In this document: one piece after another, positions 1 to 52,504 of the stretch | How positions within the stretch are numbered: position 1 is the stretch's first letter | How the letters are laid out: every line of letters begins with the position of its first letter | DNA from: Catajapyx aquilonaris | Lineage: Eukaryota | Length of the DNA: 57,614 nt | Assembly (NCBI GenBank): GCA_000934665.2 | Contig: JYFJ02002400.1 | Coordinates: 1 to 57,614, forward strand | Reading direction: 5' to 3' | Notes under the pieces: generated by a model | What the model saw: only the letters and a program-made list of their open reading frames with translations | The model's database searches: none | What the model was told of the DNA's origin: nothing | Made by a program: the position numbers and the translations under genes

Positions 1-99
1 ACTCGCTCTCCGTAAACATTGGGCAATGACACTGTAAGCGACCATCACGGGATGATGGTTGAATTCGCCCTTTTCCTTCCGCCAGGTGACAGCACCGCG

Positions 100-140
100 T
101 CCCGGACTTTTCGCCCCCGGCATATTCGCCCCCGTGGCAA
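100..140 (+). mobile_element. Fragment of the same family as 12151-12360
   Basis: CCGGACTTTTCGCCCCCGGCATATTCGCCCCCGTGGCA aligns with the left arm at 12156-12225. Confidence 0.65.
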
Positions 141-203
141 CTTCTCCCACGCCGCATCACCAAGAAAAAGGGCAACTCCATCCCTCAGTATGTCGTGGTG
201 GGA

Positions 204-12360: not shown

Positions 12361-13267
12361 GCCTATGCAACAAACGGTTGTGTTGCATACGCCCCAAGTA
12401 TAGACTGAATATCTGCGACTATAGAGAGCCTATGAGGGATGTAAAGTGGGCACTCAATATTCAATTTGCGAGTATAAGTGCAAGACTGGCAACAATGCTT
12501 TTTTTCTCTCCCATCTTATGGTGCCGTTGATGAGAAAGTTTGGTGCAAGTGCGTTTAGTAGAGGAAGAGCTTTTCTTTATTCTTCTTGTCCCGTATAATG
12601 CACTCAGGCAACCCCTCCCTTCCTCCTCTTCTCTTTTTCGAGTCGACGACGATCATTCCGCTAAAGGATTCGCCCGTCGCTCTAATGGACAATTACAAGA
12701 CGTGTCACCCTGGCTTTTAGTCGCCTGGGTTTCGCCCGAATAGTACCCCCGGAAAAAGAGAGCTAATCCGATTTGCGAGCCTGTCTCCATATTGGGATTA
12801 AAGACTAGGAGAGAGAGAGAGAGAAAAAGAGCGATGGAAAGTTACGAGCTTGCAACTCGCATTATCGCCAAAAAGGCGACGAGGAACATGGCTGCCACCA
12901 CTCACGACACTTCATTTTGCGCGCAAATTCGATGCACGCCCCTTCAATTTTGCCTCCATATCATCACCGACAAAGTGCAAAAAAAAAAAAATGCTGGAAG
13001 CGATGAGCTACAATATATTTTAAATACGCTGTTTCATACCCCCCACTTTTTTATATTTAAAAAAAAATGAAGTCATTCAATTAGTGCTCGATTTAATTAG
13101 CCCAGATCGGCACACCATATCGTTTTTTTTTTAAAAAAAAGTTGACGTTTGCTTAGGAACGTTGAGGGGAGACCCCTTAATTGCATACATTATTTAGCAC
13201 CTTTACTCGCACATGGTTGCCAAGTTTTCCCCCCGCAATTTGAGCAATGGCCAACAATCACTATATG

Positions 13268-13464
13268 CAGGGTGGACCAACTTAAAGTGTCGTTTTATAA
13301 CGGCGATTAATAGCAGTGATTTTGCGATGACGTAGCAGCGACGTGTAAAATTGCCCACTTCGATTGCGCCGAAGTGGGACATTTCACGCGTCGCTGCTAC
13401 GTCAACGCAAAATCACTGCTATTAATCGCCGTTATAAAACGACACTTGAACTTGGACCACCCTG
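13268..13464. mobile_element. Tc1/mariner-type foldback MITE
   Basis: Termini CAGGGTGG...CCACCCTG; about 95-bp near-perfect arms around a 7-nt loop (13363-13369). Followed by TA and preceded by TG (probably a mutated TA target-site duplication). Confidence 0.88.
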
Positions 13465-15012
13465 TATACGTATAGGGTAAGAATAGAGGTTAGTGCTTCT
13501 AATTAGCTGGCACTTTTCGGTGGTGGATGAATCTGGGGGAGGAATTACGATGTGTACGTGTGTGTTGAAGTGTGCTCAGTTGAGCGTGGAGTTGACAGCA
13601 GGCAGAGGAGTCGAGTCTGTAGAGGAGGCTCTTCCATCTGGAGTTTAATCCCGCGCCAGATTCTCCTCCAGGAGATTACAACTTTGGTTAACTGGCTCGG
13701 AATAGGCCGCTAGCTGCTTGGAGAGGTTGAATAGTCTCAGAAATAAATAAATGCCGAAAAAAAAGAGATTCCGCCCCAAGTAGGTTAAGCTCCCGGCGCA
13801 TGTGCCCAGGAATGTTAATTCCTCCGCACCTCTTTTGTCTGGGGTAATTAGCGCGCAGTGTCTTTCCTTTTTGCCCGCCCGTCTTAATGAAGTGTTATTC
13901 ATAAACCGGGTAGGATATATAATCAAAAAAGGGCGACCGTCTTTAAGTTGTTAGGAAACACTTTGAAGTGGGATCCAGCGTGAAAAACAAACCGAGTTTG
14001 ATTCTCTCGCCACTGAAAGGTATATACGCTGTTTTTTTTTAAAGTTATACAAAATGACAAACAGTTAGTCCCCATTGAGTGCTGCTGGGTAAGTTTCGGA
14101 CCAAGTTTGAGGTTTCGCATCCTCGGGCGCGTGCGAGGCGTTGCGAAAGGAGAAGGCGATATAATTTGAAATTCGAGTCGAGTTTTGGTGGGTAGTGTGC
14201 AGGAGGCTGCTTGTGCGAAGCTGCAGATTTTGGAAGTCATTTGGAGCGTGGAAGAGAGACGCTTTGGCCCGAAAAGCAGGCACATTTGAGGACGTGTGCA
14301 AGATGGTCTGGAAGGTGGCGAAATGCAAATCCCGTCTAGGGAAAGGGGGCACGTCTGCAGGGCCGATAGTGTCTTGTAGGAGCATAAATTTTGCAAGTCG
14401 GGAAAAGCCCCCCTGGCGGAAAAAAAGAAGGTGAGACGTCTTTTTTTTCTCTCTCCTTGCTGCAACTTGTTCGCATCCTTCCTTCCTTCCCTTTTCCATC
14501 TTCCCTTTTTTCCCCCCCACACACCACAGCCCCGCCATCTTTCGCCTCAAACGCCGGATCATATGTCAAGGGATTTTCAATTTCCCCTCGCTAAAGGGAA
14601 TCTTCACATGGAGGCTTTTAAAATTTGCAAGTCAATGTGCGCATCCCCACGCGGAGTTGGAAAAAAAACGAAGGAAAGACGAGAACCCCTCCCACCCACC
14701 CAGCCTCTCTCCTGCATCGTTTCACTTTTAAGACTCATATTCACTTGCGGCTTGGAATTGGTTTTGTAGTGGTGCAAGCCTGCTGGGAGTTTGCCCCAAG
14801 GAAAGAAAAGTGGAACTCGCGCATTACCACTTTTTTCTCTCTCTTCTTCTTCCACACTTTTTTGTCGTCTCTCTCACTGCAGAAGCCTCCTTTAAAAAAA
14901 ACAGATAAGTACTTACGTGCACGTGCACCGATTTGCTCAGCCAAGCCGCAAAATCAGTCGCTTCATACTACCAATCCCCTTATTCTGTCTATCTGCTTAT
15001 ATGTCACGTAGT

Positions 15013-15356
15013 TATTATGGGATTCACGAGTCCTGGCCTGTTAGGCTCCTCCCCCGTCCTCCCCCCTCTGAAGGCGACGTTGCCACACAGCGCGGCGCGG
15101 GGGGCGGGAAGATTTGAATTGACACGCCTGCCAGGCGGATGGGGGCGAGAACTTGGCAGCAGTGCAGTAGGGATGGGGGGACAACCAGGCCTGGAAATAA
15201 TACGACGAACCACCTATCCCTTGTTGAGACCGAACCCCGCACCAATGGCTCATACTCGCGAGAATCACGAGCATTCCAGGCCTGATTTCTTCCGTCGGTG
15301 ACGTAGGGAGGAGGTGGGTGGAGCCTAACAGGCCAGGACTCGTGAATCCCATAATA
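15013..15356. mobile_element. MITE with 37-bp perfect terminal inverted repeats
   Basis: TATTATGGGATTCACGAGTCCTGGCCTGTTAGGCTCC at the left end and its exact reverse complement at the right end; additional internal IR AGGCCTGGAA/TTCCAGGCCT. Flanks ACGTAGT / CCATAGT may be a decayed TSD. Superfamily not assignable. Confidence 0.85.
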
Positions 15357-18900: not shown

Positions 18901-20969
18901 TGTTTTTGCAAGCGTCGAAAAACATCGAAATAGATACAGTGTCGAGCACCTGATGATTGATGCTGCCAGCAAAATGGCTTTGAATGAGTCGTGTGTGTAC
19001 GAGTTTTGAAACCAAATGCGTGCACCTCCTGTATATAGCATGCATCAGCCTGACCGGGGGTGGTTGAGTCTTTAATATGAAGGCGCGGAAATCGATTTGT
19101 CACAGTGTGTTTTCTTCATTATACGGTCCCCCGACGCCCAACCGCGGGGCAATTTTTCATGTTTTCTTCCTCACTGAGAGTGGAGAGAGACGGACTGGCC
19201 ATGCACCCAGGCATTTAGAAGGCCTCTCTCTCTCACCCCCCTTTAGGCAACATGATTAATCGAGTGGGTCACTCCAGTTTGGATTGGGAAGTGATTAATC
19301 TGACGGCCGAGTCTGCTCTGCATCAATGAACACCCACCACCGAATAATATCCACTCTGCTTTTTTTTATTATCCGGGTCGCTATTAGAGGCCCGTTTTAC
19401 ACATAGGATCGCGTCTCACTGCCAACCTGGTCCGGAGGTGTTTGTCTAAAACCGGTGCGTCGTAACTGCGTGTTGAAATTGACGGTCACGGAACATTTCC
19501 CCACCCCTCCCAAAACCATTCATCAATTATGAAAGTTGGTCCCGAAGTGACGGGATGTCTGAAGAAATCGGCAACTCACTCGAGGGGGGATCATCCGGAC
19601 CAGGTTGATTGATTATTACCCACCCTATACAGGGCCGCATCATTTTCCATCGTAACAATAGAGAGGGGCTGTCACTAACATATAATGACCATCCATGTAA
19701 TTATAGGGTACCATTTGGCGGATTAAAAATATACACACGAGCGATCCGTCGCTAAAATTTGGCAACACTACCAGGTGGCGCTCAGGAGAAACGTTGGTGA
19801 TGAGTCGCCATTTGACACGTCATGGGCCTGTTAGAAGCTCGACATGCTCGGTATACCGTTTGGAAGGAATAATTGCGTGTGCGGAAATTGTTTTGCGGCT
19901 CACCTTATTGGACGGCAGGCTTGGTGACGCCAGAGACATATCAAGCACAATGGAAATTAGGCACTTGGCGCCAGCCGATTAAATTCCCCAATGTAATACC
20001 GGGTTCTCCTGAGCTGTGCAGCCATATTGATCGAGTCTATCGCCATTTTTCCACCCCCTACTATTTTTTTTCTCTCTCTCACTTTCCTCCAGGCCTTCGT
20101 TTGGGGTCGACTCCCGGTAATGAAGGAAATGGCTTTTGCCGCCACCCACATTTTTTTCTTCCCCTACACACCCAAAAAAATAAGTCCAAACTGCTTTTGA
20201 CCAGTGCTCGAAAAAATTTTCGTCGACAACAAATGTGTCGCTTTTCATCGCGCTGGCAAGTTATTTAGTGAGTCACATTTCACTGGGTGGAGGCCAAGCC
20301 CTCCAGAGAAAATAATAAGCATCGATTTTACGATGAAACCGTTTCCATTAATCTCCTCGGGTATTCCCTAATAATTTAACATATATATACGTGGGTGTAT
20401 ATATATTCCCCTGGCTGGCTGGCTCCCCCCCCCCCCCCCCNCTCCTCTTCCATGGTATTCGACCCGGGGAGGAAGCAAAGGTATTTTACCACTGCCATTT
20501 CCCGTTAGCAGGAACGGAACAGGAAAAGGGAACGATAAGCCGTTTTCCATAAGGCATTAGAGAGATGGGGGTGAGCAGCAATGTTCCTCGTAAATTCGGG
20601 CCCCCTCTTGGCGTGCCTGGAAATGGGAGAAGATGGCCCCCTCTTTTGAGCTGGCTGGGCTGCTGCTGCTGGGGATCCTCTGGTATGGTTTGGTGGGGGA
20701 GGAAATGGCGGATGTAATCATAGAATATGCTAGGGAAGACTCGGGGAAGGCGTTTCTTTTTCTCTCCCTTACCCCTACAACCTTGCTTCAATTTCCGACC
20801 AGCACAATTATTTCTCGGAGAGAATCATAATAAAAACGACCTTCAGATAAACCCTCGTGTTTATGGGGGCCATGTCGACACTCTATAAAAACGGCTGTTT
20901 ATCATGTGTTGCACTTTATCAATAAGCTGGAATGATCGGAATCAAAGTCTCCTTTCTTATCGGAGTGTA

Positions 20970-21270
20970 CTATAACACGCAAAAAGATGGCCGCACTGTA
21001 TCCGTGTGGTGTTCACGACTTTTTGTTTCACTCTCCTGCCGCCAGGGTCCGGCAACGACCACCCTGGGGGCAGGAGAGTAAACTAAAAGTCTCCTTTCTT
21101 ATCGGAGTGTACTATAACAAGCAAAAAGATGGCCGCACTGTATCCGTGACTTTTAGTTTACTCTCCTGCCCCCAGGGTGGTCGTTGCCGGACCCTGGCGG
21201 CAGGTGAGTAAAAACAAAAAGTCGCCAACACCACACGGATACAGTGCGGCCATCTTTTTGCGTGTTATAG
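20970..21270. mobile_element. Family-A foldback MITE (TA TSD) with nested hairpins and internal duplication
   Basis: TA|CTATAACACGCAAAAAGATGGCCGCACTGTATCCGTG ... exact reverse complement|TA. Each arm contains its own CTCCTGCC...GGCAGG hairpin; the centre repeats 20944-21006 at 21086-21148. Confidence 0.88.
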
Positions 21271-22477
21271 TACGTGTCGCGTGCCTGATGGCGCGACTTC
21301 TCATGTGAGCAGGTGCGGATTCGAGCGAGCGAACAATGTCTTGTCGGCACCGTTCCATTAATAGCTCGCGTCTTTTTTTAAATACGTTTGCTAAATTTCC
21401 AAGCGAAAGAAACCCGAGCAGGTTATCTCTAGAATTCGCGAACTTGGCACGGAGACTACAGCTGCAGGTCTGGTGCCAAGAGACGCACGTGCTTATCTGT
21501 TTGGCCCCCGCAGCATTTATTTGGTTGGCCAAAATTTTCGGGAGACGAAAAAGTATAGGAACAATGATTAGATTTTGGGTGAATAGAAACCCTTTATCAC
21601 TCATCAACCAGCCTCTCCTTTTCCTTCATGGCCTGCTGCACTGATAAGCCTGCCTCTCTCCCCTGGTTTTTGGGTGACATTGGACCATCAAGGGTTGCAT
21701 CTGGGGGCCTCGGGGCCATATGTATGGATTCCCTATAGCTCCCTCGACGGAATATAATCGTGTGCAGGAGAAGGAAGGGGGAGATCCAGCTAAATGCCCC
21801 CCCTTTTTCCCCCCTTTTCTCCCTTTCCCTTCCCCCCTGCTTTTGCCGCAACTCATTTCGGGCCCAGGCGACATTTTCGATTTTCTTCAAAGAGCCAGCA
21901 TGTGAGCACTCGACAAGCTCGCTTCTTTGTACAAGGCTTGGAGGCAGCAGCCTACCTGTTACGGACATGGCAAAAAAAAGAGAAAGAAACTTTGTGCGAA
22001 CCAATGCGTGTTGTTGGTTTTTGACATTATCACACCTGCAATTTTTCAGACGCCGACACGTTCCAAAAAAAAAGGTCGGACTCAGTCAGCCGGAGAGAGA
22101 GAAAAAAAAGTATATGCAAAAATTTCTGCGGTCGCGTTCGTGAGAGTTCGGTTATGTTATTTTTTTAAACCGAAACACTTGTGTTAGTTTTGCGGCCTGC
22201 GGTCAGTTTTGCAGCGCTGGGTTTTTACTCGCGAGTATGTCAGGTTGTCTGTATTCTGCCAGTATTCGATGACATTACAGATTTTGTCATCATCCTCGTT
22301 ATCCGCTGGAAACCCCATTTTTTTAGGGGGGGGGGGGNGGGGGGGGGAGGGGGAAAACGCCGTGACGGATGATGAACGAAGCTGTTGATTTGTCGACATT
22401 TTTGTGTACTACTCTCCTAAAAATTTCAAGTAAAAAATTTCAACCAAAAAAATGAGCAATTTCGCAAAATGCAATGT

Positions 22478-25900: not shown

Positions 25901-28017
25901 CGTATTCAGAGTCGTTCGCTAATGCAGCGCAAAAGTGCACACTAACTAGTGCGACGCTAGGTCCGCACTAGCGCCACACTTGTTGCTCCCATTCAGAGTC
26001 GCCTTACTGCCTGCTTAGAGCGGTGCACTAGGTTCGAACACTGCACTAGCGAGACGCGGTGTTGCCACGATTTCACAGTCAGGTTTTCGGACACCGTCTG
26101 GGCGATAAATGGGTACCACACGTGCCTATAGACACGCTTATCCTATACTGGATAAGTTGTTTTTTGTTCTTGGCAAAAATGGGTTCAAACACGAGGAGTA
26201 AGTGAAACACATATTTTTCGGCTGGCGATAATTGGCCCCCTTCCCCCCCCCCCCCCTTTCCTTCCATTTTCTTTTTATGTCGGTTTCCTTTTCCTTCCCA
26301 GCAGCACGTCATCACTCGAGCGAGTTGACTTTGGAAGGTTCGACTTTCAGGAGATGGATGTGTAAGTGCAGATGGACCACACGCGCTTTTCAGAGGCTTT
26401 GGGGGGGGGATTTTTTGGCAGCCGGGCCAAATAGCTTCTCTCGATGGAGTCAGATGCCGAGCACTTGCTGGGTAGAAAAATATGGATGGAGGTCGGGCCA
26501 AACCGCAGGAAAGTCATTACCGAAACACTATACGTTTCCAAGAGAGTTGGTCAGGCTTTCTCCCAAGTATTTTCTGAAAGGTGCTGTGGTTGACTGGTGT
26601 CATAGGTCGGGGAGCTAATTCTGGTTGGGGCCAATCTGTCTCTCTGGTAGGTGCTGGGGGGCATGGAGGAAGAGGGTTGCTGAGCTGCGGGAATCCGTCG
26701 GATTTGGAGTGGATTCGATGCTTTCAGAGCCTGGCAATAAATAAGAGGGAGGCAAACACTGGTCGGCTTCAGAGGAGGGGGAGACTTCCCCAAAATGGGG
26801 GACTGGCATCACAGGTAGTCCTCTGCCCGTGAAATGCGTTTGTGTCGGCCGAATTGGTGCCCTTCGGATGAATAGATTTGTTGGGGAGGTACAGAAGGGG
26901 ACAAAAGAGAAAATGGAACAAAAGATTTTGAGCGGACGTCTTAATCTGGCAAAGCCAAGGAAGGGTCCAGGTCCGTCCTAGAGAAAGAGAGAGAAAAAAA
27001 AGGTTTGGACCCTGCTGTGTGACAAGAAGGCAGCTGCCGGATTTGGGTAGGACATTTCTGCCTGCATGTTGCGGCCATTGTGCATCTCCTCTCAACAAAA
27101 ACCCGGGGGGACCAGGTCCAAAATTACAGACAACACATTTCTGCTACACTACATGGCGTTGACAACTGTTTGCCGCAGCAACTAGTCTCGAAAGATATCA
27201 AAATCCTACCAGTTTTGCACGACGTCACGCGACCTTGGACTCGCCGCATGCGCAGTCGCTCTGATGGCTTTATATTACTTTCTATACGTTATGAGCACAA
27301 TTTTGCAGTTGGGATCATTGGAGCCATAGCCTGTGGGAAAATAAGTGCTTTAACCTGCCGGATGATTGCCTAATAAAACGGGTTAAATACCGAAATAAAA
27401 TTAAAAATCCGACGTTTTATGCCTCGCTGGCCCCAGATTTATTTCGGGAAACCTCTTTTAAAAAAAGGGTCTATGGCTTCTCTTTTCTCTCTCTTTTTTG
27501 ATCCGACGAGCTGAGTGGTATAAGTGGAGTGTGACAGTTGATGGAGGGCTGGCTTGTACTGTCCTCCTGTCCACTTACCCGGAGGGACATCCATGACGAT
27601 CGCTATCCCGGACAAACCTCGCAGCAGCCAATAGGCCAGCTTCATCCCTCATAACATCCTGATGGGGGAGGGAATCTCTCGCTTTTTTTCCTTCTTATTC
27701 TTGGGGGTCGCCCCTCCGGTAGCCCCAACTCGTCTCGATCGAATTTAGTCCCCAAGATGGACGGTTCATGTAGGGAGGACCAGGGTCTAGGATCCATTTA
27801 CCTTTTTTTTTTACGACCAGATTTTATTTCTGGCGCTGGCGACGCCTGCGGGTTGCTGTCACTTTCTTACGTCCCCCTTCCCATGTACCGGACCCTCAAC
27901 TTTTTTCATTCCGAATTAAATTTCCTTCGGACGTGAAGCTTGCCACAGAAATCCATAGAGTACGAGTCTTTAAAAAAACGACTGTACTGCAAGGATTTGG
28001 CTTGCTGCCAATTGGGT

Positions 28018-28045
28018 GTGGGTTCGGGCCCCACGTTGGGCGCCA
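28018..28045 (-). other. Primer-binding site complementary to tRNA-Lys(CUU) 3' end (extended, includes CCA)
   Basis: Plus strand GTGGGTTCGGGCCCCACGTTGGGCGCCA vs the conserved metazoan tRNA-Lys(CUU) 3' end GTGGGTTCGAGCCCCACGTTGGGCG+CCA: 27/28. Minus strand reads TGGCGCCCAACGTGGGGC, the classic Lys PBS. Not a complete tRNA gene. Confidence 0.88.
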
Positions 28046-28046
28046 A

Positions 28047-28201
28047 TGTCAGGACCCTTGACCAGGACCAGGCTAGCTCGCAGGGCGTGGGAATAAGAGT
28101 CCGGTGGGAGGTTAAATCAGTGTATTGCAGGAGAGAGAGTGTCTCTTTTTCCCACGCCCTATGAGCTAGCCTGGTCAGGGGTCAGGTCAAGGATCCTGAC
28201 A
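28047..28201 (-). mobile_element. 155-bp TG...CA element: LTR-like terminus with long foldback arms
   Basis: Ends TGTCAGGA...TCCTGACA; arms of about 55-60 bp pair with a few mismatches and one 6-bp indel. On the minus strand it is followed after 1 nt by a tRNA-Lys primer-binding site. Confidence 0.75.
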
Positions 28202-28269
28202 CGCAAAAAGATTGTCGCACTGTATCTGTGTGGTGACCAGCCCTTTCTGGTTTACCCTCCTGCCGCAAG
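28202..28269 (+). mobile_element. Truncated family-A MITE left arm
   Basis: CGCAAAAAGATTGTCGCACTGTATCTGTGTGGTG...CTCCTGCCGCAAG aligns without gaps to 20978-21045; the first ~8 bp of the TIR are replaced by the element at 28047-28201. Confidence 0.8.
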
Positions 28270-30292
28270 CCGGTTGAGGGTGTTTGGGGGTGATTCTATA
28301 CTTCCCCTTTACCCTGTTGAATGCACCAGGATGTGCATTGAATATTTAACACGCGCTATGCACTCGGTGTTACTGCATTACTAAGCTCGCAGGCACGTAC
28401 GGATTGTGCCAAAATTCACAAGGCATTTTAGGGATTCCGCGTGGTTATCTGGACTCCTGCGAATGTTTTCCCAAGAATTCCAGCGCAACTCTAGCCCCCC
28501 CGGATTCCACCCCTCTCTCAGGAGGAAATTTCAACCGTGGAGGGGAAACTGTGCATCGATTAGGAAAGGCGAGGCATAAGCAGGCAACAATGTGTAGTCG
28601 GGAGTCCACGAGGTTTGCACCAAGTTGTGTAAGTGCAGTGTGTGTGTGTATACACAGGAAAGGCATTTAGCGAGAGTGGCTCGGGCAACGGGGGATTTTC
28701 CGGGCCAAGCCCGTTTTCGAAAAACTGTAAGGTGTCGGCTACTTAACTCCAGAAGGGAAAACAAACTTCAAAACCCAGTTCAAGGCTGGAGAAACTAGGC
28801 CAGGTCATCAAAGTTTGACATGTACTGCATGGAAAAAAGTTTTTGACATACCCTGCTCTCTGCAGCCACCCCAGTCTTATTGCTAGAGAGTGGTGGATGC
28901 CAGACGGTATATGCAATTTGACGTGGCTTTGGGTTCCCAGTGGCAGCTCCGCCTGGGTGTACTTAGCAGATAGACAAATGTAAATAGTAGGGACAAATGG
29001 AATCCACAGGCTTTGGATCCGTAATGAGAGTAGCAAGCCCTCCCCCTCCCCTGCCTCTAAATGGCATTAGGTTCCCCAGGCAGTCATTAAAGCGACCTCA
29101 GCAGCAGCTTGCTCTTTTACATCCTCGTTGCTTCATGAGGGAGGAGAATAGAGATTGGGGAGGTGGGGGAGGGGGGCAAAAGGCGTCTATTCGATCTTTG
29201 ATTTATACTAAAAGCCACGGCGCGAGAACGAGTTCCGTTTTCTTATAAGAGTGCAACTTATAATGGCGGGCAGGAAAGTTTGCCTTCCCTTCCCGCGTGC
29301 TGCCTCGCCCTATCATATATAATTATAAGCCCAAAGTAGGTAGTGGGGGAGTTATGCAGGGAAAGTTAGCGGGGGGGCCCTATTGATACCCGTTTTCAGC
29401 TCTGATTAAGTACAACCAATAAGGGAGCCGTGAATCATTTTTATGGCGGGTTAATTCGCCAGCCAAGGAAATTAGTACACTTCTCTCCGGAAGATGCTTT
29501 TCTTTTCCGGAGGGGGGGAGTTGACCTCTTAAGTTTGCCAAAAAAAAATGGCGATGAGGGATAATGAAGCATCGATTGACTTTGGCCCAAACGTGTATCA
29601 AGTTGCCGAAATAACGGTGGAAATATACACAGGATAACTTGGCGTCATCAACCAAGGTCCTTCCCCTCTTTCGAGTGAATCAATCAAGTTGTTTCCGGAA
29701 CTTGTGGATGTCTTTTGGCGTGTTGAGTGTCCGAGAAGATTGTCTGCGAAAAGAGGGGGAAAAAAAGAAATGAGGTTAAATTGTCCTCGGAAGACCGATT
29801 CGTAAGTGTAGTCGTGGCATGCAACCGGGGAGGGGCGGCCCGCGTGCTGGTTATTAGCCCCACTCCCCACTGAAAGAATGGCTCCCAGCAGATTGGCCCG
29901 ACCGTCTTCCCCAGCAGGCCCATCCCTTCTTCTTGCAAAATTAATATTCCTGCAGCTGGCTCCCCCTTCTTGTCTTGATTCCCTTCCCCCCCAAACTAGA
30001 AGCCTGAGCATCCAGGGTTAGCCAAACACGTGTCCTTTCCACCACTTGTGTATACACACACACACCGGGGGCACCCCATAAATAACGGAGACGCTTTTAG
30101 AGCCCCTGTTTTGACACTTCACTTCCTCGTCACGCAACCTCTAATAGTCTGGGTACGCCATAATGCGTATTTCAAGACCACCGCCATCTGTCTGTACATT
30201 GCCCTTAGGGACACCACTGACCAGCGACATCCCAGTGTCCCATTGTCGGTTTATCTTACCCTCGGCGCTACTGTTAGCCTGAGCGTATCTCA

Positions 30293-38004: not shown

Positions 38005-38037
38005 GTGAGTATACCTTTCTTTCTTCTGTATACTACA

Positions 38038-38261
38038 CTGCCGTCAGATGTGAGAGGACCGTAACTCAATATCCACTTCCCTTGCGGCGAGAAAAGAAAG
38101 CAAGTGTTACCGAAAGCATCCAAGAGGTGGCGTTGGGGGAAGGGGGGAAAAGGAACGGCATCCCAACTCCACCTGTCGGGTGCTTTTGGTACCACTGCTT
38201 TTTTTTCTCACCGCAAGGGGAAGTGGACATTGAGTTACGGTCTTCTCATATCTGACGGCAG
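38038..38261. mobile_element. Foldback MITE (~100-bp arms) directly after Sema2a exon 2
   Basis: CTGCCGTCAGATGTGAGAGGACCGTAACTCAAT... pairs with ...ATTGAGTTACGGTCTTCTCATATCTGACGGCAG; arms 38038-38137 and 38162-38261; flanks CA / TA. Confidence 0.88.
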
Positions 38262-41200
38262 TACAGACGTATGTGCTTTTGGTCCACGATTGACAAAAAA
38301 AAATTGGCTTATTCTCTCCGTCTGATATTTGTCCGACCTGATAGTACTACTACATCTCGCGCGGTGGCAGGCGTGTGCAGAGGGAGTATGCGCCATCTGT
38401 GCGTGAAAAATAGAACCACGTGGTAAATCGGCGGGCCATCTCATTTCGATTGTCGATTGTCACTGGACATGCCAATTTTTTGGCAACGGGTTCACTAATA
38501 TGTCAGTAATAATAATTGAAGTTAAAGCTTCGACATTACTGTAGCTTGTAGTAAGCTGCCTTGATTATATCCTGCTGAGAGTCCCTCGGGTCAGGTCAGC
38601 ATGTCAACTTTGCCCACCGATGTTGAGCATCCCACGGAGCTTAAAATATATATCTCCTGGAGCATATAGCTGCTGTGTGGGTTTTTTTGTTTAAAAAAAA
38701 GAGCTGGGTGGCTTAATAATTCACTGTTTAGCTGGGGGTGGACATGAGAGGTGTCCGGAAAGAGGACAGTGTGTCGAGGATTTAATCTGCGATTCGCCGT
38801 CCGCGTGTGGGGGGACAAAGTGAAGAATCTAATTTGAATTTCCATCATGTCCGTCATCGTTTGCAATTCATGAAGCTCCCTGAAAACTACATTTTCGATT
38901 GGTGATTAGTGGCGCCCGACACATACACACACGTGTGGCTCTGATGCTATTAGCGACTTGCACAGGAAGAAAACATGCGAAATATTTTTGGCGTAGGGTC
39001 AAAGTGTGCGCCTGGTGCCCTTAATAGAGAGAAAGGACCTGGGGGCTGAGATTGAGTTGTGCTCAGAGGCTGCTGGTAGAGAGGTGGTATATAGGTTGGA
39101 GTCTCTTCTCACGTGGGTGGATTACAGAGAAAACAGCGATAATAGGTTCGGCCTCTACTCCTAGCTCCGCTTGACTTTGATGGGCTGTAATGGAATTAGG
39201 GGAGGTGAAAGGGAAGCCCCCCCCCCCCNCCCCCTTTTCCATCCTCTCTTATGATTGCACCCTCCCAACCTCTCACTTTCCTATACCCCAGCATCAGCAC
39301 AGGAGCAGCAGCATCCCAGCCTGCAGAAACTCTCAACGCACTTGTGAGGATTGGAACCTCATTTTTTAAAGGGCTCAAAATAAATTGGCACCTGCCCCGA
39401 CATGGACGCATATAATAATTACTGCGGTTTGTGTGTAGTAGTTTACATTAATTAGTTGTTATTGATATGTGCGGCCGTTGTTTGGGCTACGTACTATTGC
39501 AGCAGGTGTGTGCACAAGCCTATACCGGAGGGGGGCTTGGCTAAATGGCGCGGGGTCAACCATCGCCCAACGAATTATTAATCAAACTGACGCCCAACAC
39601 TTGAAATATTGAAACCTTTTAACGCGTGAAAGTAACAGGCTCCATCATTAAAATTGCAGGAGCATCGGATGGTGCAGGCCGTATATTAAACTCTGGGATG
39701 ATATCACTTGGTGCCTGACCTATAATAATGTGACACTCCCTGGACATAACGGACCTGAGGGACTGATCTTTGCCCCCCCTTGACCCCGAGTAGGGGTTAT
39801 CTTATCGGGTCCGAATAAGGCGCCAAAGTACGCCCACCCAAAAAATAGGGGTTGGCGCAAGAGGATGATAATGAGGATTAATGGGCTTTTGGCCCGGACT
39901 TATCGAGTTTGGTGGACTTGGTTGGGGGTAGGGGGACGTGATCCTCCCACGGGATGCTGCTGGGAAAAGGGGGGAGTGCTCAGGGATGAGGTTCTCCTCC
40001 TGTAATAATAATGCGTGTATAATAAGACGGATGGGGGATGTGTACATGATAAGTTGGGGCATGATGCATCATCGGCCACACCATCCTAATTAGCCCGGAA
40101 TCTCTCACCAACCTAATAGTAGGTCCGGATTCTGCACTCGCACCTTGTCAAGTTTCTGTCCGGATCGATCCGGAAAACTATATATACTCCTGCAAATATT
40201 GAGGTAGTGCTTTGGCCTTGTTTATTCTGGGGTTTATCTGCGAGCCGTGTGCCGACTATCTGGAAAACTATTACTGTTGTACGCTGCGGGCTGATATCAC
40301 GTATCCTTGTAGTTGGTACCGCTGTCCAGATAAGACTCGGTGCTCGTGTGTATACTTATTGACTTACCCACCCATCCGGTACAGTGTGTCCAAGAAGGTG
40401 CGTAATGGCGTGTGCGGTGGCAGTCATCTTGGAGGCAAAGCAGTTAGCGTGATTAAAATCGATTCCCAGGGAGACCGAACCCATGCATCAGTCTGCTGAG
40501 GCCGAGAGAGGGCTGTAATTAAATAACACACTGATTAGCGGAGCAGTGACCAGGCGGGTTGTGACCAGAGCAGTTGCCCTTTTCCCCTCTTAATGCTAAA
40601 TGATGTTTGCATCTTTCGTTGGGGGGGGGGGGGGGNGGGGGGGGGGGGTCGACGCTGCTGCTGCGGCGCGACGTTTCTTACCCCAAGCTCCACATAATTG
40701 TATTTGCTTGGCACACAATCTGGAAGCTGCTGCATTAGGGAGATGGCAGCTATACTGTGCAGCCAAGCACAGCCTGTACATGGCTCAATATTCCGAGTAA
40801 AGTTGCAACAATGCCGCCTATGCACGCTGGGCTTGCAGTGTAATGGAAACTCAATTACACAATCGGGCGTTACTTTTCCTCGATTCGGAAGTTAACGAGA
40901 TGATTTCTCATCTGGCAGGCGTCGCGTGGGTGCGGTCCTGTGACAGTCGACAGCGTATTACAACGGGATTAAGCCCGGTTTATTCCGCACTTCGCACCTG
41001 AGTACCTGCTGCCAACAATCTTTTTTATTATTATTATTACTACTATATGAAGCCAGCAGACTGCAAGTGACGAAAGAAGCCGGCTCCTTCTTCCCCTCCC
41101 TTTTTATTGCGGAAGAGGTTTAATTACACGCAGTCTAATCTACATGAAATGGGCGGTGTTTGTAGGCGTGTTAGTGATATTTTGCAGCTGTAGGATGCAC

Positions 41201-44200
41201 CCCGAGGAGCATTAGGCCCTGTGATTTAAAGAGCAATTAGCCCTAATTCTGAGGAATAAATCGTGGGGTCCCTCCTTGTTGCCGCCGTATATATATCTAT
41301 CGGATAGAGTGGGTTGGAGGGGGGCAAGAGACCTCCGCGTCTTTGCATAATGGAGCAGGCTGTGATCCAAGCAAGGGATTTGTAATGGGGTCTGTTTCTG
41401 CATCCTCCGACGCGTCTGCTGGACCCGCAAACCACTGTTGTTGCTCCGGATGACAAGCAGCACTACTCTTTCTATACAGTCAACCGAGTGCTGATGGTGT
41501 AAATGAGATTGCAGGATGGATGCTGGGCGATATTTTAGAATTAAAAAAGTCTAATCCGCAGCGACAGAAGCGAGAGTCTTCTGGACACATTTCCTCATTA
41601 GAGAGGAAGGCGTCTCCGCCTCTTCGGATATATCTCCGAGAGATGCTTACCTGCTGGGATTACTACCCAAGGAGAGTATAGACTCATCGCGATGTAATTT
41701 CTCCAGACGACCACTTGTGACGCCATATGGCGCCGACGTCGTATATAGCCAAAGCCGGAGCACTGCTGCCGTCTCCTTCCTTTCCACAAGATTAATCTAT
41801 GTCGTCCACCAAGCAGCAAGCGGGCTTCATTGCCAAGGTTTCGCTTTTAAAGGACACCCACCCATCGCACTTTAAGACGCTTCTAATGTTGATTGGCACC
41901 GTATGCCTGCGAGTTAAAAAAAAGAGGTGCCCATGTATGGTATGCCCAGCGAGGTGCATTATTCCAGAAAAAAGGACCTGGCCGGATCATTAGAGACGGA
42001 GGAAAATATGGCCACTTGTGTCTGTCTCCACGATATTAATGGCTGGGGCTCCCAAGAGCGCATTACTCAACTTTAATAAGTGGGGGATTTAAATTTAACA
42101 GCATTTTGCTCCACCCTTTGTTTTTTTTCCCTCTCTCCTTCGTCCACCATAACCGTCCGTTCCAGCCGTTTTGTAATATACTGTATTGTGCCTCCCTATT
42201 GGAGACCCCGAGCAGCACATGGCCATAAAAAAGCCAAGCATGCGAGACAGCATTCCTCAAGTCGGAAATTGATTCCCGCTGGTAAAATTCTGCTAATGAA
42301 TGGACCCCCCCTATAAGTAATCACCATAATGCGCTGCAGTACACGTCCAGCCCAATAGGTTTTAATCTGCCCTGAATACCAAGTTAGCTGGGGTTGTAAC
42401 CAAGTTGGCTATAGATGCGCATTTCCGCATCGAGAAAATAGAAAGAGCCGCTCTTCTGAAAGACATTTTTATCTTCAGAGGATTCTGGGTGGGAATTGAA
42501 AGATGGTGCACACACACACAGGTCGAGGCATTGGTGAAACCGGGTGGGACAGTTCTGCATTATCGAGCTGTCAGGATGGGGTCCCGTCATGGGCCTCGCT
42601 CTGCATTTTTGCTCATTCTAGATAGCAGTGGTGGAGGGATCTTCACAAACCTCTGCCTCCGCCTTCAATCGCCCCCGATGCAAAAGCCTTTGGAGACAGG
42701 CATTTTTTTTGTCCCCCCTTCTTCTTCTTCAACTTCTCTCTCTCTCTTGGGGAAGCGGCTTCTTGGCGATTGGCCCACAGGAAATCATCCTAGCGTGAAT
42801 GGCGGCCACACGGCTGCTGGCACACAAACGTCAAATGGAGATTTCTCTCTTCCATTCCCTATATGCCCCCCTGGGAGTCACACGGAGGACTTATTCTGCG
42901 CAATGTGTCCATTAGGCTGTGTCTCCCACACTCATTGCAGCACATTTTGCAGTTCCGGCTCCTTTTTTTTAGGTTCTGTGCCCACCACACCCTTAGAAGT
43001 GATGGGACTGTGGGTGTGTGTGACCCCCACCCATGACCTCCTGCCGGGCATGTGTGTGTCGGCAGCATATATGCTGGTCATGCGTGTGCTTCTTTTCACA
43101 GGGAGCCCTGTTGCTTTCCTGTCCTTCCTGGCAGGGAGTCCGCCTCAAGTCATGCATAAATTTGAATACAGTGTGTGTGTGTGTGAGCCAGTGCGTGTGT
43201 TTTAGGAGGGGGGCCACACACGTTGGGTTTGAAAAAGTGAGGCGTCCCATATATATCGGGACTTATCTGATAGTACGCATCGCCGCCCTGTAACGAGCCC
43301 ACGTGTAGCCTACATGTTGGGTGCTTATCTGTTATTTTCCAAACCCACCCAATCACAATCGCCGGGGAAATGAAACTGGAGGTAATGAGGAAGGCGACAA
43401 ATAATTTAATGCCTCATTAATAATTTGGAGCTTATCCGAACCCGCAATTGTAATGACCATCGGGTTTGATTTTTTTTTTTTTAAATTCCAGCATGCGGTT
43501 ACAAATCGCATTAATTAGCGTCCATTTTTTTTTTTGCTAAAATTTGAGAGAGGGGGCACTGTCAACGTCCGGTCTGATTCAATTAGATAAACTCTAAAAA
43601 AATATGTAATTATTTATTTGTGTGATAAAAAATAACTGTCGCAAATTTCGCGTAGGAATTCACAGTGCAAATATTGTTACCATACCAACTTTATTTTTTC
43701 CAAAAGATGAGCTGCCGAATTTTTTTCCGGTTGTACATTACAGTATGTGCGGTAATGCAATTTAGCATGTGTTCCAGCCATGCGTTTCAATTACAGCACA
43801 ATGCACCGTAAGCAAAAAATTGAAGCCTAGTCTTTTGAACCTATTTGTCTCATTGGCAGCCGTGTTTGTAAAAAAAAAAAATGTATTTCCATGCAGAGTG
43901 CACAGATTACCGTACACATAGCCATCCGATTTGCTCTCATTATTCGTCCATGATGATAACCTGAAGCTTTCAGGGTTTGTACGACAATATTATCAAAAAA
44001 AATGCTGTAATCCAGTTAAGCTCGAAAAAGCTCTTTTGTGGGCAAAGAGAGCAGATGACAGCCCCAAAGCCCATCACCTGATGTTCGCAGCCGCAGCAGA
44101 TTATCAAGATCACTAAATTTGTCGCCAAATCCAATCAAATATTCTACTTGTACAGTCAATCGTTTGTGGCCCGGAATTAATAATACACTGGGCTGTGTAT

Positions 44201-47980: not shown

Positions 47981-49204
47981 AGCGACGCCTTGCATTCGTC
48001 GAGTATACATCAGTCGAAACGCGGTCCGTTTGTTGAACCCAACACAAGCATGTTGACCGTGGTGTCTTGCCAAAAGGAATCTGGAAGAAGACAAACCTGG
48101 CGGTGAATAGATTGGCTGACATTTTCATTAGTTACCCCCGTCAGCGGCTCCCTTTTCACACACAGAAAAATTCTTTCAGATATCCTTTTTTTACGTCGCC
48201 CAAACACGTAGGCCTACTCATTAAGACCAGCCTCCTGTCGTGGACCTATGGATATTAATAGCCGCTTGCATAATGCGTCACAATTTAAGAGTCTCTGTTA
48301 GCAGTTGCCGCCCATTGATCACCGTAATGTGCTCGACAAAAAGGCTCTGACAGCGGCAAAGAAGCGAGGTTGCCAACACATATTTGGTCGCGTCTGAACC
48401 GCGTCGTAATGCAAAAAACCCCCGGATTAATCGGAGGCCTGGGCGCTGTCCACTTTAAGTGATGGTCAGCCGCCCCCGACGTCAACCGTAAAAACCGCGT
48501 TCCAAATTGACCAAATGCCTGATAACGTGCTTCGGGGCGATAACGACCAAATGAACAAAGAGGGTGGGGGCCCATTTTTCTCCCTAGATAACTTTTGTGG
48601 GCAACACTCAGGGGGGAGAGCCTGGAAAAAATATATATATTTGGCGGACAGTAGTTTGGCGGTTGTAAACGTGTGTGCGCCGCACGTTATTGGCTGTGGT
48701 TAAAGTTGATGGAAAAACCGTAAATGATTGGGTGGTGATTAATTTGCGGAGGTTGGGGTTTGGTTCCATGGTGGGCTGCCAGCCTCGGGAGGGAGAGAAT
48801 TTTGTGCAGGCCATACCCTCCACTCTCTAATTGGCTGTCATGTCCATCGGCTTCCTGCGCAGCTTCACCCTAGGCTGGACCATCGGATCGCAAGAGTGGG
48901 GGAGAGATAGATAGAAACATCCCCCCACCTCCATTACATCATCATTACCCCTCGGGCCAAAAAAAAGTGGGGGGCGAAAAAATCCAGCAGCAAACTTAGT
49001 TTAGGCTCCCGCAATATTGGACCCAAAATTGCACCCCCCAACCTATGAATAGTTTTTTTGGGGGGCGGGGAGGGGGGGGGTGGGCTTTATTATCGCGCCC
49101 AATTTTTGCCGAATTTAACATCAGAGATTGGTTGATCCAGGAGACATAATAGCTGGAATTTTTGCCCCACTGCTAGTTGCTGCTAACCACTGCCAACACT
49201 GGTA

Positions 49205-49438
49205 CTATGAACCGCAAAAACATTGTCGCACTGTTATGGCGTTCGCGACTTCTAATTTAACCCTCCTCCCGCAAGGGGCGCTGCCAGTATCACTGAGCAG
49301 CGCCCCTTGCGGGAGGAGTGTCAATTAGAAGTCCTCCTTAGTACTCCTCCCGCAAGGGTCAGTGGTGACACTGGCAGCGCCCCTTGCGGGGAAGTCGCGG
49401 ACGCCATAACAGTGCGACAATGTTTTTGCGGTTCATAG
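49205..49438. mobile_element. Family-A-related foldback MITE (TA TSD)
   Basis: TA|CTATGAACCGCAAAAACATTGTCGCACTGTTATGGCGT ... reverse complement|TA. TIR is clearly similar to 20970; same GACTT...hairpin...AAGTC internal layout with CCGCAAGGGG/CCCCTTGCGG hairpins. Confidence 0.88.
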
Positions 49439-50973
49439 TAGGTCTACTGGGACGAAAATGCCACCAAATGTTTTTTTAAAACCCAAATGCATTCCTTCCA
49501 TTCCTGAACTTATTGGCACGTGTAAAATCCCCCCCTTTAAACGCGACTAGGGCAACATTGCTGCAACTTCGAGGGTGTAATGGCTTGTAAAACAGGCAGA
49601 AACACCCCTTGGAAAGCAGGCTAATGTATTATTATTGGCCTCGTATCCTCGGGCAGTAAAATAAGCCCTTTCGGACCGTTTCATTCATTCGGCAGCCGAC
49701 CGTTTTGAGGCCTCATAACATGGCTGGAGGAGACAATTGGCCCAATTCTCTCTCGGAGTAATGGCCCAGCGACTTTGGTCAAACTCAGCTCTTCGGAACT
49801 GGTCCGCATTTTGGCGCTGTCTGCCAGGGCATCAACCACACATGTGTCCTACATACTCTTTGAATTATTTTGGCTGGAGTCCCATGTGCGTCCCCGCACA
49901 CATTTTGTCATGTGTGAGACCCAGTTCGGCAGCAGGATGGCCGTAAAAATAATTTAATTACGGGTAATCTTCCGGGTGCGGCCTGGGTGATTCCGGAGCA
50001 ACAGCCGGAAAAAATAGGGGGGGAAGCTAGAAGGTTGTAGCCGGGATGAAAGGGAAATGTCATTTCCAAGTAGTCGAGCCTTATCGCTCTTTTACGATGC
50101 ATTCATTTGGCTGCCAAATAGCTACGTTTACTGCCAGCCAAGGACAGCGCCCGGATGCCTCCAATTCCTTGCTCTGTATGTTTTTTTTCCGGGGGGGGGG
50201 GGGGGGNACACAAAAATTGTGTGTACATTGTTACCTGGTGTGTACCTGCCGCGAGTACAAACAAGGTCTTCCCACGAGAGCTAAATTGCGGCTCTAAAGC
50301 GAAACAGCCAGCCCATCTTTTTCATTACTAGTTTCAAACGGGGGTCTGCCACACAGGGTGCCTCAAAAAAAACTGTGGTTGCTGGGACGAACAATCATCT
50401 GTTGCGACTTTGCAGCAGCACCCTGTTGCCTAGAAAAAGCGGTCGTGTTAGGTAAACTGCAGAGTATCAAGTGTGCAGCTCGGATGCACCCAATTAAAAG
50501 GGGCCGCATGCTGCCGTGGGTGGGGGGGTGAACATTGCAGAAAAGAGGGTTTTATCTGGAAAGCTCATCCCGGCTAATTATCCCGCACGCTGTCTGTCCG
50601 GAGAGATTTCCACTCCGGGGTTCCCCCCCTCCACAAGTGAGCGTAAAATGTTAATGTCTGGCCCTAACTGCAGGAGGGCGTTGCTTGCGTTTTGCTCTGC
50701 TTTGCCCAAACTGAGTTGCAGAGAAAAGACAAGTTTTAAAGTTTCAGGTGTGCGGAGGGTTAGGTTGGCAGCCTGCCTGGCTGTTGGGTTGGCAGGTCTT
50801 CCCCTCCCCAAACTGCCTCACCCGGCCTTTTGTTGGAAAAGAGATACACGTTCCTCATGCATTATGGACCAGGCCCCACAGCCACTGCCTCCAGGACCAG
50901 GCATATAGGTCTGCAGGGAACGGTCCATATACACTCACACTGGATGTGTATACAGAGAGGTTCGGCGGAAGAA

Positions 50974-51151: not shown

Positions 51152-52504
51152 TCAACAGGCAGCGTGTTGCCAATAATAAGTCGAGTATAATGAAATCCAG
51201 TCCAGCAAGTGCGGTAGTTTGAGTAATGCATCGGGGCATGTGCTGTACGTTACTATACGTGTTGTGTCAGCTTGGCTCGGCTCGGCTTGGCTGGTGCCAA
51301 CGGCCCGCCAATTTGTTAATGATTCATTTAGCAAATGAGAGAGCGGGCAGCCTTTTCCACGCAAACCAGAATAGCCCCTGCCTGCGTCATAGACTAAAGG
51401 GCAGCAGCAACAGCACAAGAACTGAGCTGCTAATTTATTGTTCAGCAATGATTGTCCCACCATTATTTTTATGTAGTTTTTGGCCTCTCAGTCCCCTCCA
51501 AAAAATAGTGTCGTCTCGTCGCATCATTAAACCAAACCCTCTTTTGGTATCGCGATTTATTCATTTATGCCCGCCTTTTGGCCCGACTTTTTCGGCAAGC
51601 CCTGGGGGTTGGATTGGTCCACAACTAGTCCCCCCCCACTTTCCCCCTTGTCGCATGCTAATTTCGGGTCCGAGTCAAATAGATGATGAGTCAGACGTGC
51701 TCTCATTATCTAACTGCAGCGCAAATAGAGGGAAGTTAGCCGTCTTTGTGCCTCCAATTTCACATGATAATGCCGACTTATTTTGCTCCCAGGGACAGAG
51801 AGGGAAGGGGGGAGATTATGACGTTACATTTTCAATGGCCGAAAAAAAACAGGCGCTCCAATCTCTTCTGTCATATCCGGCCATGATGGTGTTACGAGTT
51901 AGTCACACCTAATATAATAATATTTATAAAAAAAGTGCTAATATCGAGTGACGTCACTTGAGGTTCTGAACAAGTTTGGTGGGAATCAGCACTTTCTGAA
52001 GCAATGAGTCGCGCACAAAAAAGTTTTTTACTCCTAGTTCCTTCTCTCTCTTTTTGAGTGTTGAGCACCTGAGGGACAATCCGGGCTGAAATGAAGACGT
52101 GGAGAAAAATAGGGGAGGCTGCAACCTGATCGGTATGCCGGAGGCAGGATTCCTCAAACAAAAGTTGCACCGCAGACTGCCCCCTCACCCTCCTCCTTCC
52201 CAAACTCCATTACTCCCCTCCTCTCCCCACACAGCTCGCCTTCCCCCCTTCTTTTATTCTCCTCCTCCTCCTCCTCTCGTTGGCGCTTTTTCTTTGCTGT
52301 TGGCTTTTTGGGCAGGGAAAGCACGTAACCCGTTCACTCCAATTGCTGGAGGGAGATGGAGTATAACTACCAAGACTCTGATTCTGTTTGGAAAAACACC
52401 ACTCAAAAAACGGAGTCACACAACTCAACAACAGCTATACATCGCTGTCTGACCATGCCTTCAAAATAGGACTTTTTTCCGGAACCAAAACTGTCAACAC
52501 GGTC

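Follow-up and report, generated by a model that had tools for sequence, protein, structure and literature searches.

What is the 155-nucleotide (nt) hairpin at positions 28047-28201 of a Catajapyx aquilonaris contig (JYFJ02002400.1, assembly GCA_000934665.2), one end of which lies a single base from a primer-binding site (PBS) for lysine transfer RNA (tRNA-Lys)? The contig is analysed over positions 1 to 57,614 of its forward strand, and this whole stretch is what we call the window. A sequence-only reading of the same DNA had taken the hairpin for a palindromic long terminal repeat (LTR) which in solo form might move as a miniature inverted-repeat transposable element (MITE). We read the locus, with a probability of about 0.5, as a relic from an LTR retroelement family primed by tRNA-Lys(CTT), a dead fragment rather than a proven new mobile element. 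On the minus strand this would place, in order, a stretch from the unique 5' (U5) side of a multi-copy repeat, here called S, ending in ...CCTGACA, then one base, then a 32-nt reverse-transcribed copy of the primer tRNA. That copy would consist of the 18-nt PBS and a read-through that crosses tRNA position 58 and the T arm and stops at position 44, and S would be closed into the hairpin by a second, inverted terminus, 59 nt long and 43 nt away. Going by the sequence, we find it quite probable that the left arm is an LTR end joined to a primer copy, because the CA-N-TGG junction is recurrent, the copy carries CCA and a T-arm extension, and 20 parallel cases are found among metagenome loci. The repeat S would then be the end of an LTR. 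The features of the locus are:

27998..28013, plus strand: possible decayed remainder of the tRNA copy, GGCTTGCTGCCAATT; weak.
28014..28045, plus strand: copy of the 3' part of tRNA-Lys(CTT), positions 44-73 plus CCA; on the minus strand, the 18-nt PBS (28045->28028) and a 14-nt T-arm extension (28027->28014).
28046..28046, no strand: one-base spacer, a T on the minus strand, separating the CCA of the tRNA from the TGT end.
28047..28099, plus strand: left arm, adjoining the PBS; the terminal (U5-side) part of repeat S, in complement.
28100..28142, plus strand: loop; 28100-28133 still belongs to multi-copy repeat S, and other copies differ from 28134 on.
28143..28201, minus strand: right arm; it repeats the terminus in inverted form, exceeds the left arm by 6 nt and stops exactly at ...CCTGACA.
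28199..28292, plus strand: fragment of an unrelated MITE family, lacking its first 8 bases (GTACTATA) and abutting the hairpin end.

The minus strand reads ...CCTGACA, then T, then TGGCGCCCAACGTGGGGC (28045->28028), an exact 18-nt PBS for tRNA-Lys(CTT), and the same 18-mer is given as the 'Lys,1,2' PBS in PMC1084362. It occurs once in the window, where 0.04 matches with up to three mismatches would be expected by chance. The arrangement typical of an LTR/PBS junction, namely a CA end, 0-3 nt and the TGG-starting complement of a tRNA 3' end, is found at the hairpin end as the sequence-only reading had described; the tRNA match itself kept its exact PBS and proved to be 32 nt long (28014-28045) rather than 18. 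As the tRNA reference we used the full tRNA-Lys copy of metagenome locus L005, which is identical to the human tRNA-Lys(CTT) in PMC8216282. The match to this reference comprises 31 identities in 33 columns, a score reached in 0 of 3000 shuffles, with only two differences, A58->G and a one-base gap at position 48; all 42 of 42 metagenome loci match 28014-28045 at 90-96.6%. Eukaryotic tRNA genes encode no CCA, and the CCA in the copy therefore points to a mature tRNA, not a gene, as the template. The gap at position 48 adjoins positions 46-49, which are modified in animal tRNA-Lys. Position 58 of tRNA-Lys is 1-methyladenosine (m1A) and the usual stop of plus-strand strong-stop synthesis, and where synthesis stops neither at 58 nor at 54 it continues into the tRNA, according to PMC8599865. 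No tRNA gene was found in the window by ARAGORN, and no Rfam tRNA match was found around the unit at E values up to 10. The possible remainder at 27998-28013 aligns best locally to GGCTAGCTC..GGGCGTGGG of both arms, at scores equalled by 345 and 117 of 2000 shuffles, and its identity as tRNA was rejected as not significant.

The junction is found beyond this one copy. Contigs from three of four DNA runs of one sample, and from one other run, were aligned to 27300-28500 at 80% likeness; no contigs of run X5 aligned to this region. Depth was summed with one figure per contig, and the short contigs of the palindrome can fall on either arm. Loose ends and pieces are given as found among the contigs listed, with 87 loose ends and 377 pieces beyond those. 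In run X1, single-copy DNA has a summed depth of about 30, and left of about 28000 the depth is flat at 29.9 across 27300-27955, except at 27669-27709, where an unrelated contig raises one bin, and reaches 37.5 at 27956-27996. The following summed depths were obtained across the locus in run X1:

27997-28037: 140.
Position 28044: 351.
Position 28061, outer left arm: 357.
28079-28119: 3296.
28120-28160: 750.
28161-28201: 2155.
28202-28242, the unrelated MITE: 3433.

Depth is 217-357 over 28047-28065 and climbs to about 3300 from about 28073, and repeat S is multi-copy, at tens of copy-equivalents. The adjacency of terminus and PBS is no chance event, because the depth at the junction (351) equals that of the outer arm (357) and because the spacer varies among contigs, three of which carry an additional A and one an additional AT, so that spacers span 1-3 nt. 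With these spacers the junction of hairpin end and PBS recurs at about 12 copy-equivalents, and it is a property of the repeat family. The earlier suggestion of a real CA-N-TGG junction between LTR terminus and PBS is borne out by these depths, and the possibility it had entertained, that all other copies lack an adjacent PBS, falls away. The tRNA-like stretch shows by contig depth no separate high-copy repeat. At least one other copy has a T arm with G at position 58, as one contig per run reads ...GCAGGG, GTGGGTT, CGGGCC.... At the other end of the unit, four contigs depart from the window sequence exactly behind 28201, and the right end is therefore a shared repeat boundary. The region 27300-28232 is spanned without difference by contigs in two of the three DNA runs and by two overlapping contigs in the third; because contigs of all three runs cover it, the locus is not an artefact of one read, and since the runs probably derive from the same sample as the window assembly, their agreement adds no independent support.

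Next to the junction stands the hairpin. It starts with TGTCAGGA and finishes with TCCTGACA, forming the 155-nt TGT...ACA unit with long inverted repeats that had been reported from the letters alone. A repeat finder returns core arms of 34 nt (28066-28099 / 28143-28176) that are 91% complementary with 43 nt between them, and end-to-end alignment extends these to full arms of 53 nt (28047-28099) and 59 nt (28143-28201), which differ by five substitutions and one 6-nt indel. The folding energy of the unit as single-stranded DNA is -48.4 kcal/mol, compared with -19.9 +/- 2.9 for shuffled sequences (n=200; z -9.75), and 0 of 200 shuffles folded as well. The loop reads CTCTCTCTCC-TGC-AATACA on the minus strand (28139->28121), with AATACA behind a CT-rich run as the sequence-only reading had seen. 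Both arms bear some likeness to the tRNA itself. The left arm holds CCAGGCTAGCTC, weakly similar to tRNA-Lys positions 2-13 (score equalled by 149 of 3000 shuffles), and the reverse complement of the right arm aligns to positions 2-31 with a 5-nt gap (14 of 3000); in semi-global alignments the scores for 2-13 and 2-31 were equalled by 129 and 51 of 2000 shuffles, respectively, and neither arm showed a clear box B. We also considered a microRNA precursor and rejected it, the Rfam matches of the unit to mir-550 (28.8 bits against a gathering threshold of 81) and mir-4654 (23.4 against 87) being sub-threshold, generic hairpin matches.

How unusual is such a junction? We scanned metagenome contigs for a tRNA-Lys T arm followed by CCA and obtained 42 loci (L001-L042). 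A TGT lies 0-3 nt behind the CCA in 22 of these, where we estimate about 2.6 of 42 by chance. Two (L019, L034) look like chance occurrences, and the remaining 20 of 42 indicate that junctions of an LTR end with a 30-76 nt read-through copy of tRNA-Lys are common in invertebrate-type DNA. The tRNA copies of the comparators begin anywhere from position 1 to 47, with spacers of 0-3 nt; the match begins at position 47 in L016/L039, at 43 in L030 and at 44 in the window. In L016 a 30-nt tRNA match is followed, about 80 nt on, by an open reading frame (ORF) whose DUF1759 domain is gag-like (25.6 bits against a cut-off of 25.4; E 1.4e-5), and therefore a long PBS-side match does occur in a bona fide LTR element. 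L033 has the order LTR, A, tRNA complement 76->16, LTR, A, PBS, internal region, and L009 the order LTR, 59 nt of tRNA complement, LTR. These two arrangements resemble a two-LTR junction with a primer insert, and L008 has inverted LTRs with a tRNA between them. A segment like the tRNA-Lys 5' half or T arm recurs within the LTR complement, on the primer-copy strand, at +67..108 (L027), +121..154 (L037) and +45..60 (L009) after the CCA, equalled by 0 of 400 shuffles in L027 and L037 and by 2 of 400 in L009; the window arm, on the same strand, was equalled by 21 of 400. Extended pairing of primer and template, or earlier read-through and recombination, may account for such antisense segments. None of the 22 comparators carries a long inverted repeat at its TGT end (best scores about 10 matched bases), and none of the 42 loci is similar to the window outside the tRNA part. 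Two core patterns of the unit had no matches in metagenome, viral or prokaryote-genome contigs, and the junction pattern had none in viral contigs. Alignments made to see whether mismatches in the comparator tRNA copies cluster at modified positions were over-extended, and no conclusion is drawn from them.

The comparators, as LTR/PBS junctions with primer read-through, are the closest in kind to this locus, followed by TRIMs (terminal-repeat retrotransposons in miniature) such as Helenus. With tRNA-Lys(1,2)-primed LTR retroelements (Gypsy, BEL/Pao; L016/L039, L030, L033, L009) the window shares the TGT...ACA terminus, the 0-3-nt spacer and a TGG-starting complement of tRNA-Lys(CTT) that includes the CCA and matches over more than 18 nt, and with L027, L037 and L009 the 5'-half-like tRNA-Lys segment within the LTR complement. 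It differs from them in its long terminal inverted repeat and in having no internal region, second LTR or polypurine tract (PPT). What is new here is the 32-nt tRNA match up to position 44, the multi-copy family and the recurrent junction with its spacer variants.

We next consider what surrounds the unit, as this bears on whether the copy is alive. No target-site duplication (TSD) was found at the unit, the flanks CCAA (GCCAA) and CGCA (CGCAA) being unlike. Searches of the 57.6-kb window with up to three mismatches, blastn and nhmmer returned no second unit, core or PBS, and no second LTR in direct orientation. No PPT was found in the window either, where there is no 3' LTR to bear one, a result that is indecisive for a truncated copy. 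A Pfam scan of 113 ORFs (36 around the unit and 77 elsewhere) found no reverse transcriptase, RNase H, integrase, protease, gag or transposase and no ORF of a long interspersed nuclear element (LINE), in agreement with the earlier remark that gag and pol are not recognisable in the window, and no Rfam family reached its gathering score in the window. The proposed non-autonomous element therefore lost ground, its second unit, PPT and TSD not being found in the window, as did the proposed MITE- or Ginger-like movement, for which the flanks provide no TSD and the 113 ORFs no integrase or transposase.

No further parts of an element are present at the locus, which lies between a broken MITE end and single-copy DNA. 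The MITE fragment is 82% identical to 20975-21045, and its alignment with other copies in the window (20967-21273 and 49203-49440) covers 28199-28273. The intact end of the family, with ...GTACTATA ahead of 28199, is seen in 15-17 contigs per run, and the consensus runs on past 28269. This MITE family is high-copy, with about 100 copy-equivalents by summed contig depth and terminal inverted repeats (TIRs) of GTACTATAACACGCAAAAAGAT...; in its duplicated or nested copy at 20944-21273, a single right end goes with two left ends that are 98% alike and lie 142 nt from each other. The left flank of the locus was tried as the missing half of the MITE and rejected, without significant similarity (344, 693, 66 and 801 of 1000 shuffles). 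In each run one contig at single-copy depth joins 27682-27702 to 28281-28301 (21 + 21 nt), skipping 578 bp. An allele without the 578 bp was rejected as its explanation: the right side of the joint lies within the MITE consensus (with a loose end behind 28269) and the left side in a T-rich low-complexity run. In our judgement the 27702->28281 joint is probably a contig of another MITE copy.

The copy thus flanked appears to be a dead end, either a by-product of reverse transcription captured at a DNA break or an integrated copy truncated behind the PBS and later altered by an inverted duplication, and because we read it in this way the hairpin would be an accident of this copy and not the design of a family. 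Other copies may well be ordinary, with a one-off inverted duplication here. A captured by-product is favoured because both ends of the inserted piece, at the terminus of the LTR and at a stop within the tRNA, match natural ends of reverse-transcription intermediates and because the adjoining MITE lost just its tip. Three routes would lead to the observed structure. The first would be a self-primed, snap-back minus-strand strong-stop DNA still bearing its primer; the second, a plus-strand strong-stop DNA of a truly palindromic LTR, reading into the tRNA; and the third, an integrated copy cut short directly behind the PBS, with a later inverted duplication. To our knowledge no self-primed strong-stop DNA has been reported as fixed in a genome, although no search was aimed at it; the locus might be a natural fossil of such a molecule, with a copy of its modified tRNA primer, which would be a less radical novelty than a living foldback LTR. 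Self-primed minus-strand strong-stop DNA of retroviruses, as described in PMC6088434, resembles the window in the fold-back of R-U5 (the terminal repeat, R, and U5) and its copy, the end at the U5 terminus, the attached primer tRNA and the dead-end fate; it differs in that the arms of the window are only about 91% alike. According to the same source it is known in vitro and was undetected in endogenous reactions with detergent-treated particles.

Several observations weigh against reading the locus as a dead remnant. The structure of the other copies lies beyond the contig tables, and a family of hairpins, while unlikely, has some probability. The right arm stops exactly at the terminus, as the arm of a designed foldback unit would too. 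The arms differ at 5 of 53 bases and by a 6-nt indel, so that a copy made by snap-back would need to be either old or error-prone, and no terminal base pairing that could prime a snap-back was seen at the unit, the 3' side of the loop being a purine run. The capture of complementary DNA at breaks is known from work in yeast and would be a supposition here. At least one further genomic copy, and also L039, share the G at position 58, which may be inherited and not the scar of a fresh read-through. Finally, the likeness of the arms to tRNA is marginal, with 14-149 of 3000 and 51-129 of 2000 shuffles equalling the scores, and is suggestive only.

The alternative that survives best, which we nonetheless consider rather unlikely, is a family-wide foldback LTR, that is a TRIM-like non-autonomous element whose LTR of about 155-200 bp is itself a long hairpin, with MITE-like solo copies; the present copy would be a 5' LTR with its PBS, truncated or captured as plus-strand strong-stop DNA. 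A complete LTR with PBS and tRNA read-through is indeed the make-up of plus-strand strong-stop DNA, the PBS junction recurs, both unit ends are shared repeat boundaries, depth is high on both arms, and the exact TGT...ACA ends fit the TGTNR of Gypsy LTRs and Ginger (PMC2836005). Among the contigs listed, however, no other copy could be demonstrated to be a hairpin: three contigs (runs X3, X4) depart from the window sequence behind 28133, within the loop, and none bridges both arms through a different loop or has, within the unit, a joint that skips sequence or changes strand. This speaks against the LTR as a foldback of the kind that the sequence-only reading had envisaged. One contig reads ACCTCCTACCGGTCTCTTATT ahead of 28152, which would lengthen the palindrome inward if it belongs to the right arm, and it is equally an ordinary S copy placed in reverse. 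The second unit, PPT and TSD expected of such an element were not found in the window, the loose ends listed behind 28201 show no PPT-like consensus (pyrimidine-rich on the plus strand), and beyond the tRNA copy lies single-copy DNA.

Known miniature elements offer little help to this alternative, as an LTR of this kind is present in 0 of 22 comparators and the Helenus sequences lack the motifs of the unit. Helenus (TRIMp3) LTRs measure 120-323 bp, with two LTRs around a PBS and PPT and a 4-bp TSD in animals (Kojima 2024, PMC10886601). They resemble the window in their short LTR, in the tRNA-Lys PBS of some animal families and in possibly tRNA-derived LTR sequence, and the sequence supplement of that paper holds 33 occurrences of the Lys-type PBS start TGGCGCCCAAC. 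In this supplement TGTCAGGA had no matches and GGCTAGCTC and GGGAATAAGAG occurred in none of the files, which are line-wrapped, so that matches at line ends would be missed. The window differs from TRIM/Helenus in having one unit only, with no second LTR, PPT or TSD found; and whereas in the Helenus LTRs examined the tRNA-like part, with its boxes A and B, lies in the sense strand of the LTR, that of the window is a weak 5'-half-like stretch on both strands. A literature search, judged by titles and the beginnings of abstracts, found no LTR that is itself a hairpin, and the works on palindromic or inverted-repeat LTRs that it returned deal with LTR-LTR junction palindromes, integrase sites and LTR-finding software. 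That a living non-autonomous family has this hairpin for its true LTR, with identical ends serving as integrase substrates, so that the LTR with PBS and also the solo MITE-like unit could be moved by integrase, is in our view improbable. Were it so, it would bear on the interconversion of LTR elements and integrase-type DNA transposons, and a hairpin that is a true LTR would link LTR retroelements structurally to Ginger-type DNA transposons.

Still less probable is a tRNA-Lys-headed retroposon, similar to a short interspersed nuclear element (SINE) and born from strong-stop DNA. It would depend on RNA polymerase III for its transcription and on a LINE for its copying, and on the plus strand would consist of a tRNA-Lys-like head, CCA, a spacer and the complement of U5-R. 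Reportedly, Ohshima et al. proposed in 1993 that tRNA-Lys SINEs arose from strong-stop DNA, in the order tRNA...CCA-A-TGT, and these SINEs share with the window the plus-strand order of tRNA-Lys, CCA and U5-complement-like sequence. A B-box-like GGTTCGGGCCC is present, depth climbs from the tRNA part toward S as 5'-truncated copies would make it do, and one other copy has GGCTAGCTCGCAGGG directly ahead of the T arm. Such families do exist, since about 13 of the 42 metagenome loci consist of a full tRNA-Lys with CCA and a conserved downstream stretch. That stretch is T-rich (TTATTTTCTCTTTTGATTAGACATTTTAT...), and the loci (L005, L006, L010, L012, L014, L019, L020, L021, L023, L026, L028, L029 and L041) represent a family of SINE-like sequences or of tRNA genes whose DNA includes the CCA. 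The window, however, lacks a complete tRNA-like head: only tRNA positions 44-76 are clear, neither ARAGORN nor Rfam reports a tRNA, and there is no A box. It also has no LINE-like tail or A-rich end, the MITE fragment following directly, and no LINE ORF. Copies without the tRNA part stop at the defined TGT/ACA terminus and not at random truncation points.

The DNA transposons most similar to the unit are Ginger1 and Ginger2, which have TIRs of 40-270 bp, TGTNR termini as in Gypsy LTRs, and 4-bp TSDs, with CCGG/CCGT as the targets of Ginger1 and RTATAY as those of Ginger2 (Bao et al. 2010, PMC2836005). The window shares their long TIRs and TGTNR ends and differs in having no TSD and no integrase-like ORF and in bearing a PBS, for which a DNA transposon has no need. 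An ordinary cut-and-paste MITE, for example of Ginger type, with TIRs of about 55 nt, placed beside a tRNA-derived fragment by chance or target preference, is therefore highly improbable despite its long TIRs (arms of 53 and 59 nt), its TGTCA...TGACA ends of TGTNR form and a window rich in MITE-like inverted repeats (13264-13468, 15013-15356, 20967-21273, 38037-38262, 49203-49440), as the flanks CCAA and CGCA form no TSD, the PBS junction recurs in other copies at the depth of the outer arm, the tRNA-like stretch is no independent high-copy repeat, the window ORFs contain no transposase, and neither Ginger target, as given in PMC2836005, is seen at the ends.

If instead the locus is the remnant of a tRNA-Lys-primed LTR retroelement, it would be a legible record of failed reverse transcription in an animal germ line, in which an LTR terminus with a read-through copy of its mature primer was folded back and lodged at a broken transposon end.

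Elsewhere in the window, we observe a 205-bp near-perfect palindrome at 13264-13468, with 99-nt arms (91%), a 7-nt loop, CAGGGTGG... ends and TATA on its flanks. A motif similar to this palindrome, CAGGGTGGCCAGAT, is found at 52494-53459 in a tandem array of 93-98-bp units in 7-9 copies, which also forms a 287-bp higher-order repeat (97%). MITE-like inverted-repeat pairs are located at 15013-15356 (51-nt arms, 94%) and 38037-38262 (45-nt arms, 93%). The whole window contains 16 N, and long G runs broken by a single N, probably hard-to-sequence homopolymers, are found at 22319-22360, 40614-40655 and 49052-49093. The sole coding hint in the window is a Period-like PAS-A match on the plus strand at 41555-41872, weak and sub-threshold in Pfam (18.5 bits, the cut-off being 27; E 0.0022).

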